DNA of 64,000 nucleotides, from the NCBI RefSeq assembly GCF_009931435.1, contig NZ_CP043414.1, one strand, 5' to 3'. Shown here piece by piece: positions 10,969 through 42,146 of the stretch (positions within the stretch are counted from its first letter, which is position 1; each line of letters begins with the position of its first letter). The translations under genes were made by a program, and so were the position numbers. The stretch comes from Escherichia coli. Its GTDB lineage: Bacteria; Pseudomonadota; Gammaproteobacteria; Enterobacterales; Enterobacteriaceae. The notes beneath the pieces are model-generated. The model ran no database searches and had not been told where the DNA came from. It saw nothing but the letters and a program-made list of their open reading frames with translations.

Positions 10969-11075
10969 CATGCCGGATGCGGCGTGAACGCCTTATCCGT
11001 CCTACAAAATAGTGCAAATTCAATATATTGCACCATCCTCGTAGGCCTGATGAACGTAGCGTATCAGGCTATCAT
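10969..11075. repeat. BIME / REP palindromic units
   Basis: tgccggatgcggcgtgaacgccttatcc ... gtaggcctgatgaacgtagcgtatcaggc, canonical REP consensus in inverted pair. Confidence 0.85.
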
Positions 11076-29688: not shown

Positions 29689-29765
29689 GGCTACGTAGCT
29701 CAGTTGGTTAGAGCACATCACTCATAATGATGGGGTCACAGGTTCGAATCCCGTCGTAGCCACCA
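29689..29765 (+). tRNA. metT: tRNA-Met (CAU, elongator)
   Basis: 77-nt cloverleaf ggctacgtagctcagttggttagagcacatcactCATaatgatg...cgtagccacca with encoded CCA. Confidence 0.97.
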
Positions 29766-29773
29766 TCTTTTTT

Positions 29774-29858
29774 GCGGGAGTGGCGAAATTGGTAGACGCA
29801 CCAGATTTAGGTTCTGGCGCCGCAAGGTGTGCGAGTTCAAGTCTCGCCTCCCGCACCA
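29774..29858 (+). tRNA. leuW: tRNA-Leu (UAG)
   Basis: 85-nt gcgggagtggcgaaattggtagacgcaccagattTAGgttctgg... long variable arm, CCA end. Confidence 0.97.
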
Positions 29859-29881
29859 TTCACCAGAAAGCGTTGTACGGA

Positions 29882-29956
29882 TGGGGTATCGCCAAGCGGT
29901 AAGGCACCGGTTTTTGATACCGGCATTCCCTGGTTCGAATCCAGGTACCCCAGCCA
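29882..29956 (+). tRNA. glnU: tRNA-Gln (UUG)
   Basis: 75-nt tggggtatcgccaagcggtaaggcaccggtttTTGataccgg...ccccagcca. Confidence 0.97.
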
Positions 29957-29990
29957 TCTTCTTCGAGTAAGCGGTTCACCGCCCGGTTAT

Positions 29991-30065
29991 TGGGGTATCG
30001 CCAAGCGGTAAGGCACCGGTTTTTGATACCGGCATTCCCTGGTTCGAATCCAGGTACCCCAGCCA
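29991..30065 (+). tRNA. glnW: tRNA-Gln (UUG)
   Basis: Identical 75-nt copy of the UUG tRNA-Gln. Confidence 0.97.
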
Positions 30066-30080
30066 TCGAAGAAACAATCT

Positions 30081-30157
30081 GGCTACGTAGCTCAGTTGGT
30101 TAGAGCACATCACTCATAATGATGGGGTCACAGGTTCGAATCCCGTCGTAGCCACCA
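30081..30157 (+). tRNA. metU: tRNA-Met (CAU, elongator)
   Basis: Second 77-nt copy identical to metT. Confidence 0.97.
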
Positions 30158-30205
30158 AATTCTGAATGTGTCGAATGCGTTCGGCAAATTCACAAACCAA
30201 TTTGT

Positions 30206-30280
30206 TGGGGTATCGCCAAGCGGTAAGGCACCGGATTCTGATTCCGGCATTCCGAGGTTCGAATCCTCGTACCCCAGCCA
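30206..30280 (+). tRNA. glnV: tRNA-Gln (CUG)
   Basis: 75-nt tggggtatcgccaagcggtaaggcaccggattCTGattccgg...ccccagcca. Confidence 0.97.
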
Positions 30281-30317
30281 ATTTATTCAAGACGCTTACC
30301 TTGTAAGTGCACCCAGT

Positions 30318-30392
30318 TGGGGTATCGCCAAGCGGTAAGGCACCGGATTCTGATTCCGGCATTCCGAGGTTCGAATCCTCGTACCCCAGCCA
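30318..30392 (+). tRNA. glnX: tRNA-Gln (CUG)
   Basis: Second identical CUG tRNA-Gln copy. Confidence 0.97.
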
Positions 30393-35940: not shown

Positions 35941-37479
35941 ATGGCTTTTGCCTCATTAATTGAACGCCAGCGCATTCGCCTGCTGCTGGCGTTATTATTC
36001 GGTGCCTGCGGAACGCTGGCCTTCTCTCCTTACGATGTCTGGCCTGCGGCGATTATTTCGCTGATGGGACTTCAGGCGCTCACCTTTAACCGCCGTCCAC
36101 TCCAGTCTGCCGCTATTGGCTTTTGCTGGGGATTTGGCCTGTTTGGCAGCGGTATTAACTGGGTCTATGTCAGCATCGCGACCTTTGGCGGAATGCCTGG
36201 CCCAGTTAACATCTTCCTGGTGGTGCTGCTGGCGGCGTATTTGTCGCTGTATACCGGACTGTTTGCTGGCGTGCTGTCGCGTCTGTGGCCGAAAACCACC
36301 TGGCTACGCGTGGCGATTGCCGCCCCTGCTCTCTGGCAAGTGACCGAGTTTCTGCGCGGTTGGGTGCTGACTGGCTTCCCGTGGTTGCAGTTCGGCTATA
36401 GCCAGATTGACGGTCCGTTAAAAGGACTGGCACCGATAATGGGCGTGGAAGCCATTAACTTCCTGCTGATGATGGTAAGCGGCCTGCTGGCACTGGCGTT
36501 GGTCAAACGCAACTGGCGTCCGCTGGTGGTGGCCGTCGTGCTGTTCGCCCTTCCCTTCCCGCTGCGTTACATCCAGTGGTTCACCCCGCAACCGGAGAAA
36601 ACCATTCAGGTTTCGATGGTTCAGGGCGACATTCCGCAATCGCTGAAGTGGGATGAAGGCCAGCTTCTCAATACGCTGAAGATTTACTACAACGCAACGG
36701 CACCGCTGATGGGCAAGTCATCGCTGATTATCTGGCCGGAGTCGGCGATAACCGACCTGGAAATTAATCAGCAGCCGTTCCTCAAAGCACTGGACGGTGA
36801 GTTGCGTGATAAAGGTAGCTCGCTGGTCACCGGGATTGTCGACGCGCGTCTCAATAAGCAGAACCGCTACGATACCTACAACACCATCATCACGCTGGGT
36901 AAAGGTGCACCGTACAGCTATGAATCGACCGATCGCTATAACAAAAACCATCTGGTGCCGTTTGGCGAGTTTGTCCCGCTGGAGTCGATTCTGCGTCCGT
37001 TAGCACCGTTCTTTGATCTGCCGATGTCGTCATTCAGCCGTGGACCATATATCCAACCACCGCTGTCGGTAAATGGTATTGAGCTTACTGCGGCTATTTG
37101 CTACGAGATCATTCTCGGCGAGCAAGTGCGCGATAACTTCCGCCCGGATACCGACTATCTGCTGACTATCTCCAACGATGCGTGGTTTGGTAAGTCTATT
37201 GGCCCATGGCAGCACTTTCAGATGGCGCGAATGCGTGCGCTGGAGCTGGCGCGCCCGCTGCTGCGTAGCACCAATAATGGCATCACGGCGGTGATTGGTC
37301 CGCAGGGTGAGATTCAGGCGATGATCCCGCAATTCACCCGCGAGGTGTTGACCACTAATGTGACGCCGACTACCGGACTCACACCGTACGCACGTACCGG
37401 CAACTGGCCGCTGTGGGTACTGACGGCACTGTTTGGTTTTGCCGCTGTGTTGATGAGTCTGCATCAACGACGTAAATAA
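35941..37479 (+). CDS. lnt: apolipoprotein N-acyltransferase
   Basis: ORF track 35941..37479, 512 aa; N-terminal multi-TM region plus CN-hydrolase domain. Confidence 0.95.
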
Positions 37480-37490
37480 TCCCTTCTTAT

Positions 37491-37558
37491 CGTGCCGGAA
37501 TACATCCCGTATTTCGGCACGCTCGCCGGATGTGGTATCAGTGCGTTATCCGGATGAC
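37491..37558. repeat. hairpin plus REP-like palindrome downstream of lnt
   Basis: cgtgccgga ... tcggcacg stem, then gccggatgtggtatcagtgcgttatccggatgac. Confidence 0.6.
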
Positions 37559-37578
37559 AAAATTCCCCTATCCAACTT

Positions 37579-37594
37579 TGGCACATCTATTGCT
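37579..37594 (+). promoter_or_regulatory. candidate sigma-54 (-24/-12) promoter upstream of gltI
   Basis: TGGCAC-atcta-TTGCT matches TGGCAC-N5-TTGCW; TGCACC / GGTAGCACC half-site-like motifs nearby. Confidence 0.35.
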
Positions 37595-37875
37595 TTGTTA
37601 TACAAGGCAAAGCTTGAACCCGCGTCAGAACAACCCGGTTGCACCACAGCAATCCACCGGTAGCACCAAAAGAGTGCATTTTAAGAATTTTGCTTCGGAA
37701 TGGTGCGGCGCATCTCGCAAAAACAAACAATAAAACATCAATATCTTTACATTTAGCCAAACTAAATGTTACCTAACAAACACAACACTGCACAATAAAG
37801 TTGCAGATGATAACAACACAAACACTCACAACGGGTATCCATGCGTTCTTAACGCAGAAGATAAAGGAGTTGGAT

Positions 37876-38784
37876 ATGCAATTACGTAAACCTGCCACAG
37901 CAATCCTGGCCCTGGCGCTTTCCGCAGGCCTGGCACAGGCAGATGACGCCGCCCCGGCAGCGGGCAGTACGCTGGACAAAATCGCCAAAAACGGTGTGAT
38001 TGTCGTCGGTCACCGTGAATCTTCAGTACCTTTCTCTTATTACGACAATCAGCAAAAAGTGGTGGGTTACTCGCAGGATTACTCCAACGCCATTGTTGAA
38101 GCAGTGAAAAAGAAACTCAATAAACCGGACTTGCAGGTGAAACTGATTCCGATCACCTCACAAAACCGTATTCCGCTGCTGCAAAACGGCACTTTCGATT
38201 TTGAATGTGGTTCAACCACCAACAACGTCGAACGCCAAAAACAGGCGGCTTTCTCTGACACTATTTTCGTGGTCGGTACGCGCCTGCTGACCAAAAAAGG
38301 CGGCGATATCAAAGATTTTGCCGACCTGAAAGGCAAAGCCGTAGTCGTTACTTCCGGCACTACCTCTGAAGTTTTGCTCAACAAACTGAATGAAGAGCAA
38401 AAAATGAATATGCGCATCATCAGCGCCAAAGATCACGGTGACTCTTTCCGCACCCTGGAAAGCGGTCGTGCCGTTGCCTTTATGATGGATGACGCTCTGT
38501 TAGCCGGTGAGCGAGCGAAAGCGAAGAAACCAGACAACTGGGAAATCGTCGGCAAGCCGCAGTCTCAGGAAGCCTACGGTTGCATGTTGCGTAAAGACGA
38601 TCCGCAGTTCAAAAAGCTGATGGATGACACTATCGCTCAGGTGCAGACCTCCGGTGAAGCGGAAAAATGGTTTGATAAGTGGTTCAAAAATCCAATTCCG
38701 CCGAAAAACCTGAACATGAATTTCGAACTGTCAGACGAAATGAAAGCACTGTTCAAAGAACCGAATGACAAGGCACTGAACTAA
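37876..38784 (+). CDS. gltI: glutamate/aspartate ABC transporter periplasmic binding protein
   Basis: ORF track 37801..38784; start placed at ATG 37876 (MQLRKPATAILALALSAGLAQA signal peptide) with aaggag upstream, 302 aa. Confidence 0.94.
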   Translation: MQLRKPATAILALALSAGLAQADDAAPAAGSTLDKIAKNGVIVVGHRESSVPFSYYDNQQKVVGYSQDYSNAIVEAVKKKLNKPDLQVKLIPITSQNRIPLLQNGTFDFECGSTTNNVERQKQAAFSDTIFVVGTRLLTKKGGDIKDFADLKGKAVVVTSGTTSEVLLNKLNEEQKMNMRIISAKDHGDSFRTLESGRAVAFMMDDALLAGERAKAKKPDNWEIVGKPQSQEAYGCMLRKDDPQFKKLMDDTIAQVQTSGEAEKWFDKWFKNPIPPKNLNMNFELSDEMKALFKEPNDKALN

Positions 38785-38789
38785 TTACA

Positions 38790-38941
38790 AGAACCAGGGG
38801 CGGAAATTCCAGCCCTCTCGATTGTTACGTAGCACGGACAGACTATACGCCTGATGGTCGTTCCCCATCGGGCCTGAAAACCGCAATACGCTGGGTAACA
38901 ATCTTCGAGGGTAGCAGTTAACGCTGCTACCCTCTTTTTTC
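38790..38941 (+). ncRNA. sroC: sRNA SroC region (gltI 3' end / gltI-gltJ spacer), ending at an intra-operon terminator
   Basis: 169-nt spacer between gltI and gltJ ending in gagggtagcag ttaacg ctgctaccctc + T7 (38907..38941); 5' boundary not determinable from sequence alone. Confidence 0.5.
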
Positions 38942-38953
38942 TGGAGTAGATTT

Positions 38954-39694
38954 ATGTCTATAGACTGGAACTGGGGTATTTTTTTACAACAAGCCCCGTT
39001 CGGCAACACCACCTATCTTGGTTGGATCTGGAGTGGTTTTCAGGTGACGATCGCTTTGTCGATCTGCGCCTGGATTATCGCTTTCCTCGTCGGTTCATTT
39101 TTCGGCATTTTACGTACCGTTCCAAACCGTTTTCTCTCCGGTCTGGGTACGTTGTATGTCGAACTGTTCCGCAACGTGCCGTTGATTGTGCAATTCTTTA
39201 CCTGGTATCTGGTTATCCCTGAACTGTTGCCGGAAAAAATCGGCATGTGGTTTAAGGCAGAACTAGACCCCAATATTCAGTTTTTCCTCTCCTCCATGCT
39301 CTGTCTGGGACTGTTTACTGCAGCTCGTGTTTGCGAACAAGTACGCGCCGCGATTCAGTCGCTGCCGCGTGGGCAAAAAAATGCCGCGCTGGCAATGGGT
39401 CTGACGCTACCGCAGGCTTACCGCTACGTACTGTTGCCTAACGCTTATCGCGTTATCGTCCCGCCAATGACCTCTGAGATGATGAACCTGGTAAAAAACT
39501 CCGCCATCGCCTCGACCATCGGTCTGGTGGATATGGCGGCGCAGGCCGGTAAATTGCTCGATTACTCGGCCCACGCCTGGGAGTCATTTACCGCCATTAC
39601 GCTGGCGTATGTGTTGATTAACGCTTTTATCATGCTGGTGATGACGCTGGTTGAACGTAAAGTTCGCCTGCCCGGCAACATGGGGGGCAAATAA
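38954..39694 (+). CDS. gltJ: glutamate/aspartate ABC transporter permease
   Basis: ORF track 38954..39694, 246 aa, multi-TM. Confidence 0.94.
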
Positions 39695-40368
39695 TGTACG
39701 AGTTTGACTGGAGTTCCATTGTTCCTTCCCTGCCATATCTGCTCGACGGGCTGGTGATCACCCTGAAAATCACCATCACGGCGGTGGTCATTGGTATTTT
39801 GTGGGGTACGTTGCTGGCAGTAATGCGCTTGTCCAGCTTTGCGCCGATTGCCTGGTTTGCCAAAGCCTACGTTAACGTGTTCCGTTCGATCCCGTTAGTC
39901 ATGGTTTTGCTATGGTTTTACCTGATTGTGCCGGGTTTTCTGCAAAACGTGCTGGGATTATCGCCAAAAAATGATATCCGTTTAATTTCGGCGATGGTGG
40001 CGTTTTCGATGTTTGAAGCGGCCTACTATTCAGAGATTATCCGTGCCGGTATTCAAAGTATTTCCCGTGGGCAGTCGAGCGCCGCGCTGGCGTTGGGGAT
40101 GACTCACTGGCAGTCGATGAAACTGATTATTCTGCCGCAGGCGTTCCGCGCGATGGTGCCGCTGCTGCTCACTCAGGGCATCGTACTGTTCCAGGATACC
40201 TCGCTGGTGTATGTGTTATCTCTGGCCGATTTCTTCCGTACCGCCTCAACCATTGGTGAGCGTGATGGTACACAGGTCGAAATGATTCTGTTTGCCGGGT
40301 TTGTTTATTTCGTTATTAGCCTTAGCGCATCGTTGTTGGTCAGCTACTTGAAAAGAAGGACAGCATAA
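39694..40368 (+). CDS. gltK: glutamate/aspartate ABC transporter permease
   Basis: ORF track 39694..40368, 224 aa, multi-TM; 1-nt overlap with gltJ. Confidence 0.94.
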
Positions 40369-41093
40369 TGATTACCCTGAAAAATGTTTCAAAATGGTAT
40401 GGTCACTTTCAGGTGCTGACCGACTGCTCAACCGAAGTGAAAAAAGGTGAAGTAGTGGTGGTTTGTGGTCCGTCAGGCTCTGGCAAATCAACACTGATTA
40501 AAACCGTCAACGGCCTCGAACCGGTGCAGCAAGGTGAAATCACCGTCGATGGTATCGTGGTTAATGATAAGAAAACCGATCTGGCAAAGCTGCGTTCCCG
40601 CGTCGGGATGGTGTTCCAGCATTTCGAGCTGTTCCCTCATTTGTCGATTATTGAAAACCTGACCCTGGCGCAGGTAAAAGTGCTTAAACGCGATAAAGCG
40701 CCCGCTCGTGAAAAAGCCCTGAAATTGCTGGAGCGCGTCGGGCTTTCCGCACATGCCAATAAGTTTCCGGCGCAGCTTTCCGGCGGTCAGCAGCAGCGTG
40801 TGGCGATCGCTCGCGCATTGTGCATGGATCCTATCGCGATGCTGTTCGACGAACCGACATCGGCGCTGGATCCGGAGATGATTAACGAAGTGCTGGACGT
40901 GATGGTGGAACTGGCGAACGAAGGAATGACCATGATGGTGGTGACCCACGAAATGGGCTTTGCCCGTAAAGTGGCGAATCGGGTGATCTTTATGGACGAG
41001 GGTAAAATTGTCGAAGACTCGCCGAAAGACGCTTTCTTCGATGATCCGAAATCGGACCGCGCAAAAGACTTCCTCGCGAAAATCCTGCATTAA
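40368..41093 (+). CDS. gltL: glutamate/aspartate ABC transporter ATP-binding protein
   Basis: ORF track 40368..41093, 241 aa; Walker [18 protein letters not shown] signature, Walker B. Confidence 0.95.
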
Positions 41094-41210
41094 TCACTCT
41101 GGCGCGCATACCCAAGTGCGCGCCATCTCACGCTTTATCGTTTCGCTCCTCGTATCTGTTACATCCTGGCGTTACCCTTGTCGCAAAGAAGCACACAACA
41201 AGGAGCAACA

Positions 41211-42146
41211 ATGGCACTGCCGATTCTGTTAGATTGCGACCCAGGTCATGACGACGCTATCGCAATAGTTCTCGCCCTCGCCTCACCAGAGCTTGATGTC
41301 AAAGCAATTACGTCTTCCGCCGGAAACCAGACACCAGAAAAAACCTTACGCAATGTTCTGCGTATGCTGACCTTGCTTAATCGCACCGATATTCCGGTAG
41401 CAGGCGGCGCGGTAAAACCATTAATGCGTGATTTGATTATCGCGGACAATGTGCACGGCGAAAGCGGTCTCGACGGCCCGGCATTACCGGAACCGACGTT
41501 CGCACCGCAAAACTGTACGGCGGTGGAGCTGATGGCGAAAACGCTGCGTGAAAGTGCGGAACCTGTCACGATTGTTTCTACCGGACCGCAAACTAACGTT
41601 GCCTTGCTGCTCAATAGCCATCCGGAACTGCATAGCAAAATCGCCCGTATCGTGATTATGGGCGGCGCAATGGGGCTTGGTAACTGGACGCCAGCCGCCG
41701 AGTTTAATATTTATGTTGACCCGGAAGCGGCAGAAATTGTTTTCCAGTCAGGGATCCCGGTGGTGATGGCCGGTCTGGATGTTACCCACAAAGCACAAAT
41801 CCACGTTGAAGACACCGAGCGTTTCCGCGCGATTGGCAACCCTGTTTCAACCATTGTTGCCGAACTGCTGGATTTCTTCCTCGAATATCACAAAGACGAA
41901 AAATGGGGCTTTGTGGGCGCACCGCTGCATGACCCATGCACCATCGCCTGGCTGTTGAAACCAGAGTTGTTTACCACTGTTGAGCGCTGGGTTGGCGTGG
42001 AAACACAGGGGAAATATACTCAGGGCATGACGGTTGTTGATTATTATTATCTGACAGGCAATAAACCGAATGCCACTGTAATGGTCGATATTGATCGTCA
42101 GGGCTTTGTTGATTTACTGGCTGAGCGTCTGAAATTTTACGCTTAA
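41211..42146 (+). CDS. rihA: pyrimidine-specific ribonucleoside hydrolase
   Basis: ORF track 41178..42146; start placed at ATG 41211 ([16 protein letters not shown], DxDxxxDD motif) with aaggag upstream, 311 aa. Confidence 0.94.

Follow-up and report, generated by a model that had tools for sequence, protein, structure and literature searches.

The hairpin between gltI and gltJ in an Escherichia coli genome is almost certainly the 3′ end of the known small RNA SroC

A terminator-like hairpin in the middle of an operon raises the question of what becomes of the genes that lie beyond it, and of the RNA that ends on it. Here we address this question for a strong hairpin inside the gltIJKL operon of Escherichia coli, located in a 64,000-nt stretch of contig NZ_CP043414.1 (hereafter, the window). 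The original prediction had assigned two roles to this hairpin, as an attenuator yielding more binding-protein than permease transcript and as the 3′ end of a 3′UTR-derived small RNA (sRNA), and had pointed to SroC as the sRNA at this position. Our results indicate that the element is almost certainly the known, annotated and experimentally characterised SroC sRNA of E. coli, and that no new biology is present in the window. The identity, structure, terminator, pairing sites and conservation of the element were established in the present analysis, which found nothing that contradicts the sroC-locus explanation. The locus is organized as follows.

37876..38784, + strand: gltI, encoding the 302-aa periplasmic glutamate/aspartate-binding protein, from whose mRNA SroC derives (ORF list; RefSeq annotation of identical DNA)
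38780..38942, + strand: SroC sRNA, 163 nt, with its 5′ end within the last gltI codons and an intrinsic terminator as its 3′ end (RF00369; K-12 identity)
38943..38946, + strand: gltJ Shine-Dalgarno GGAG, directly 3′ of the terminator (sequence)
38954..41093, + strand: permease and ATPase genes gltJ (38954-39694), gltK (39694-40368) and gltL (40368-41093) (ORF list; K-12 annotation)

The 3′ end of gltI reads ...CTGAACTAA, with the stop codon at 38782-38784, and a 169-nt spacer separates it from the gltJ ATG at 38954, the start of a 246-aa ORF. A 75-aa minus-strand ORF (38785..39012) spanning the spacer was dismissed as a mechanical ORF with no support. Upstream of the operon, K-12 MG1655 carries a 1.2 kb IS5 copy (IS5D with insH3) between lnt and gltI; the lnt-gltI spacer of the window (37480-37875) is an uninterrupted 396 nt, and the window therefore derives from a strain without IS5 upstream of the gltI promoter region.

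The identity of the element was addressed by searching the entire window against Rfam 15 at the gathering threshold, the covariance-model search put forward with the original prediction as a check. The sroC model (RF00369) matched at 38780..38942 (+) and scored 174.8 bits (gathering threshold, 45; E = 7.4e-37), and the match covers the whole model (positions 1-163 of 163). Comparison of window positions 38760-38960 with K-12 MG1655 (NC_000913.3) yielded 201/201 identical columns. The K-12 counterpart is annotated as ncRNA sroC (b4763; 686681..686843(-)), between gltJ and gltI and with a 5-nt gltI overlap, and the window element is 100% identical to it, with no difference in the window. The assignment to SroC was thus correct, as was the location of the sRNA; its start had been set at 38785, and both the K-12 annotation and Rfam place it at 38780, with the end at 38942. 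Every property of SroC that can be examined in silico was found in the window element, which occupies the gltI-gltJ spacer on the operon strand, overlaps the gltI stop with its 5′ end and shows the same arrangement as in K-12. A 501-base query (38600-39100), running from the end of gltI across the spacer into the start of gltJ, was recovered from 5421 of the 5426 complete genomes of E. coli, nearly always at 99% identity or above, with matches falling under annotated gltI and gltJ. Two of the 5431 matching places lie on plasmids, not chromosomes.

The 3′ portion of the element contains the hairpin in question and its T tract.

38907..38934, + strand: terminator hairpin, GAGGGUAGCAG(U)-loop-(G)CUGCUACCCUC (fold; terminator scan; 7/8 aligned stem pairs invariant)
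38935..38942, + strand: U tract, T6 (38935-38940) followed by C and T, the transcript release site (sequence; Term-seq 3′ end at 38940)

The sequence runs GAGGGTAGCAG-TTAACG-CTGCTACCCTC (38907-38934), then TTTTTTCT (38935-38942) and GGAG (38943-38946), and is folded by ViennaRNA into 12 pairs with a 4-nt loop, the 5′ arm spanning 38907-38917/18 and the 3′ arm 38923/24-38934. The 46 nt from 38900 to 38945 have a minimum free energy (MFE) of -22.7 kcal/mol, compared with -8.0 +/- 2.4 kcal/mol in 200 dinucleotide shuffles (z = -6.13, with 0/200 as good). A consensus scan of 37400-41400 ranked the hairpin (12 pairs, 7 G-C) first among terminator-like sites, and returned it as the only strong one in the operon. 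Because of the shuffle result and this top rank, we consider the hairpin to be real and non-random, in agreement with the strong hairpin originally described 13 nt before the gltJ start. Its G+C-rich stem is followed directly by T6, as in an intra-operon terminator; the T tract lies where it had been reported, with an uninterrupted run of six and not seven T, and the gltJ Shine-Dalgarno begins 3 nt past that run (38943 vs 38940). No promoter-like site was detected by a sigma-70 scan between the terminator and gltJ, and gltJ, gltK and gltL would be expressed from read-through transcripts only. The U tail of Hfq-dependent sRNAs is the expected Hfq-binding 3′ tail, a role that the tail of SroC would share.

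Published mapping of RNA 3′ ends agrees with termination at this tract. In MG1655 Term-seq data (LB, OD 0.4; Adams et al. 2021, PMC7815308, supplementary files 1 and 3), a 3′ end with a mean count of 42,928 is listed at 686683(-). It is assigned to the interior of sroC and precedes gltJ by 14 nt. Since 686681 corresponds to window position 38942, this end maps to 38940, where the run of T stops; the discrete 3′ end anticipated at 38941 is hence present, with its exact position revised. The site has an intrinsic-terminator score of 3.71, where values of at least 3.0 suggest intrinsic termination, and a Rho score of 1.10 ('No'), and is not a Rho termination region (PMC7815308). A second SroC 3′ end, listed in the sheet for another growth condition, lies at 686689, or window position 38934, the last base of the stem (PMC7815308); an RNA ending there would be devoid of the U tail expected to bind Hfq.

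The same study reports DirectRNA-seq coverage of 102 reads upstream and 82 downstream of the site in LB at OD 0.4 without bicyclomycin (BCM) (PMC7815308), from which it follows that read-through was substantial in this one dataset and that the size of the attenuation is uncertain. These values fit a leaky terminator, and the locus has been described as 'a leaky Rho-independent terminator' that is the source of both monocistronic gltI mRNA and SroC (Miyakoshi et al. 2015, PMC4474525). Together with the intrinsic score, this description bears out the attenuator originally proposed. Substantial read-through could also be accommodated by a hairpin that acts mainly as a 3′-exonuclease barrier, REP-like as in malE-malF, protecting gltI mRNA after endonucleolytic cleavage and not terminating, given that any stable 3′ hairpin also protects from 3′-5′ exonucleases. 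We deem this explanation extremely improbable, since the U tract lies directly 3′ of the stem, the 3′ end falls on the last U (38940) with an intrinsic score of 3.71 (PMC7815308), and the authors explicitly contrast the locus with the stabiliser mechanism (PMC4474525). The two systems are alike in outcome, as each obtains more binding-protein than permease message from one promoter (PMC4474525), but malE-malF relies on protection from 3′ exonucleases following cleavage, whereas the sroC locus relies on leaky intrinsic termination, with a U tract and a mapped 3′ end. Under leaky intrinsic termination, transcription from a single gltI promoter would encounter a strong but permeable intrinsic terminator (38907-38934 plus the U tract) before the gltJ ribosome-binding site. 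Terminated transcripts would provide monocistronic gltI mRNA and thereby an excess of binding protein, and read-through transcripts would provide gltIJKL.

The terminator is one of three elements in the MFE fold of the 163-nt SroC, which agrees with the Rfam consensus and has an energy of -66.3 kcal/mol, compared with -40.5 +/- 4.0 kcal/mol in shuffles (z = -6.5). The other two elements, and the GcvB-binding sites contained in the second of them, are listed below.

38797..38816, + strand: SroC stem-loop 1 (SL1) (MFE fold; Rfam consensus structure)
38820..38903, + strand: SroC stem-loop 2 (SL2), a long irregular helix carrying both GcvB-pairing sites (MFE fold; covariation)
38836..38843, + strand: GcvB-binding site BS2, GGACAGAC, in the SL2 internal bulge (exact 8-nt complement of K-12 GcvB 156-163, R3/SL4)
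38858..38864, + strand: GcvB-binding site BS1, UCGUUCC, in the SL2 apical loop (exact 7-nt complement of K-12 GcvB 13-19, SL1)

These sites were located by an exact-complement k-mer search against K-12 gcvB, which was adopted after a global RNAduplex of SroC against GcvB returned a meaningless full-length duplex and was set aside. In the window SroC, BS1 follows BS2 by 14 nt. Structure probing (Miyakoshi et al. 2015, PMC4474525) has identified two short SroC sites (7 or 8 nt) with a 14-nt spacing, at the tip and the bulge of SL2, whose contacts in GcvB are SL1 and the region around G156. The element in the window hence shares with the SroC characterised in Salmonella Typhimurium (RF00369, b4763; Miyakoshi, Chao and Vogel 2015) its position between gltI and gltJ, its three hairpins and its terminator, as well as both GcvB sites with their 14-nt spacing. 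Overall, six 7-mer complements were observed between SroC and GcvB against 1.9 expected (p ~0.04). Other complements of 7-8 nt, among them SroC 101-108 with GcvB 189-196 and SroC 146-152 with GcvB 114-120, lie inside stable stems of both RNAs and were treated as chance. The first of these (ACCGCAAU, 38880-38887) is an exact 8-nt match to the GcvB terminator stem; it is probably inaccessible and due to chance, and is absent from the published contacts.

The same search against K-12 gcvB uncovered complementarity at the other end of the parental gene.

37777..37832, + strand: segments of the gltI 5′ leader rich in C and A, with complementarity to the GU-rich R1 region of GcvB, a candidate feed-forward input (complementarity search against K-12 gcvB)

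Within this region, CAAACACAACA at 37777-37787 matches GcvB 79-89 and AACAACACAA at 37812-37821 matches GcvB 73-82, with more 7-mers extending out to 37832. A GcvB target site has been documented in the gltI 5′ UTR through a delta-CA mutant (PMC4474525), and the complementarity of the leader fits gltI as a putative GcvB target in the window. Reviews list MgrR and the fliE/flhBAE mRNAs as further SroC targets (PMC9438474); our complement search between SroC and MgrR returned only AAAACCGC, which matches the MgrR terminator, and one 6-mer.

Conservation of these features was analyzed on 80 loci obtained from one GltI scan of a species-representative genome collection, spanning Escherichia, Salmonella, Citrobacter, Enterobacter, Klebsiella, Kluyvera, Buttiauxella, Cedecea, Atlantibacter and other genera. 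In all 80 the spacer closes with GGGTAGC...GCTACCC followed by a stretch of T and a Shine-Dalgarno resembling GGAG (GGAG or AGGA in 80/80), so that the terminator directly precedes the gltJ ribosome-binding site in 80/80 Enterobacteriaceae species. Rfam sroC matches above threshold were found in the gltI-gltJ spacer of 20/20 loci, chosen among the most divergent or longest-spacer ones. BS2 is exact in 80/80 loci and sits within a conserved block (at least 95%) at 38836-38845; BS1 is exact in 68/80 and overlaps another such block (38859-38866), its variant being CCGUUCC in all nine cases visible in the alignments. Blocks at this level of conservation form three groups: one covers both GcvB sites, another the base of SL2 (CCCTC, CGATTG, ATC), and the third the two terminator arms with the T tract. 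Invariant columns make up 36% of the spacer; among third-codon positions of the 100 codons next to it, the share is 6% in gltI and 11% in gltJ.

Structural conservation was assessed on an alignment of 57 spacers, of which 56 distinct sequences were used for pair-level statistics. RNAalifold recovers SL2 and the terminator from the 57 spacers, with compensatory changes at 15/34 pairs, and SL2 has 15 pairs with compensatory changes across the 56 distinct sequences; in SL1, one-sided changes only were seen in the 3 pairs retained by RNAalifold. In the named structure 96.7% of cells are paired; this value falls to 87.4% when columns are shuffled and to 40-53% when the structure is slid along the alignment as a control. 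Its covariation score of 0.327 (0.151 in shuffles) was reached by 0/500 shuffles. In the terminator stem, 7/8 aligned pairs are invariant in the 56 distinct sequences, and since the stem does not vary it shows no covariation, so that its comparative support comes through conservation only.

These patterns bear on whether the locus might act in cis alone, as a terminator or attenuator within the operon that determines the GltI:GltJKL ratio, with the ~160-nt RNA as an inert decay remnant. The terminator is real and lies directly before the gltJ ribosome-binding site, and ABC operons commonly need differential expression of binding protein and permease (PMC4474525). We nevertheless judge a purely cis-acting locus to be very improbable: blocks conserved across genera at 95% or more and unrelated to termination coincide with the GcvB-pairing sites, and the pairing of SL2 is maintained by compensatory changes. 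Published genetics point in the same direction, as deletion of sroC stabilises GcvB about 10-fold and the purely cis-acting account is refuted in Salmonella, where pulse expression of SroC depletes GcvB (PMC4474525).

The preferred reading of the locus as both a leaky terminator and the source of a trans-acting SroC leaves room for an additional feature. The terminator arms and the AUCUUCGAG that precedes them are invariant across the sampled genera (blocks 38901-38914 and 38924-38933), and a generic terminator would not need such invariance; for this reason, a trans-acting factor might conceivably control termination or read-through in a sequence-specific manner, or the region might serve as a second pairing surface, although we consider either of these unlikely. 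Miyakoshi et al. noted 'additional conserved nucleotides' and raised the possibility of regulated termination (PMC4474525), which, if true, would determine the GltI:GltJKL ratio as well as the amount of SroC made. The stem varies in length: in Escherichia it reaches 12 pairs by means of an extra AG..TTAA..CG (38915-38926), in contrast to ~8 pairs (GGGTAGC GCT GCTACCC) in Salmonella, Citrobacter, Enterobacter, Klebsiella and most other genera. Kluyvera and one other Enterobacteriaceae locus carry different stem extensions at the counterpart of 38915-38926.

Spacer length also varies. In several species, insertions of ~60-180 nt extend the gltI-gltJ spacer to 260-340 nt (L014, L022 and L046 in Citrobacter; L034, L036, L043 and L068 in Yokenella, Trabulsiella and others; L062 and L073 in Buttiauxella). 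In some loci the insert separates SL1 from the gltI stop, in others it separates SL2 from the terminator. These inserts resemble short intergenic repeats or mobile elements, and would alter the length of SroC or its precursor. The Cedecea colo locus (L080, 2426-2770) contains two terminator-like copies, the first (GGCTAGCGCTGCTACCC) without a T tract and the second, ~130 nt onward, with a T tract and just before gltJ.

Published work is our source for the processing by RNase E, the dependence on Hfq and the decay of GcvB, as it is for the leakiness of the terminator and the mapped 3′ end, and the mechanism comes mostly from Salmonella, with E. coli homologues reported to be functional (PMC4474525). 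The 5′ end of SroC is monophosphorylated and does not coincide with a transcription start site, and its release from gltI-sroC requires RNase E with 5′-P sensing, as well as Hfq (PMC4474525). Some 3′UTR sRNAs are independently transcribed (PMC4474525), and SroC could in principle likewise arise from its own promoter inside the gltI 3′ end, like DapZ or MicL. The 5′ monophosphate, the lack of a start site and the RNase E-dependent production of SroC from gltI-sroC (PMC4474525) leave this origin with hardly any likelihood. A simple sigma-70 scan detected no promoter-like site on the + strand in 37400-41400, a weak argument given that the real gltI promoter was also missed.

In the processing route that we favor, Hfq would guide RNase E, which senses a 5′ monophosphate, to trim the terminated mRNA to a stable SroC of ~163 nt (38780-38942). 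With Hfq, SroC would then pair through 38836-38843 and 38858-38864 with two distant regions of GcvB, and this pairing would lead to decay of GcvB by RNase E. When SroC is expressed in a pulse, GcvB is depleted, an effect that depends on Hfq and RNase E, and deletion of sroC raises the GcvB half-life from 1.7 to >15 min (PMC4474525). In E. coli RIL-seq data, SroC-GcvB chimeras account for up to ~70% of GcvB reads in stationary phase (PMC9299463). Because GcvB represses gltI together with many other amino-acid transport and metabolism mRNAs, SroC would de-repress its own parental mRNA plus the remaining GcvB regulon. SroC is in this respect a textbook mRNA-derived sponge, through which a single ABC-transporter operon is connected with the entire amino-acid regulon of GcvB.

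SroC resembles SdhX, NarS, MalH, OppZ and CpxQ in being the RNase E-processed 3′ end of an mRNA, sharing the intrinsic terminator of that mRNA and associating with Hfq (PMC9438474). Unlike these sRNAs, it has its terminator inside an operon and not at the operon end, and its main target is not an mRNA but another sRNA, which it sponges and destabilises.

Elsewhere in the window, the ES036 (CssrF) sRNA model (RF02751) matched at 11006-11048 (+) with 45.5 bits against a gathering score of 37.6. Rfam tRNA matches also delineate seven tRNA genes within ~700 nt (29689-30389, +), corresponding to the K-12 cluster with leuW and glnX that appears at ~696 kb in the Term-seq table (PMC7815308).
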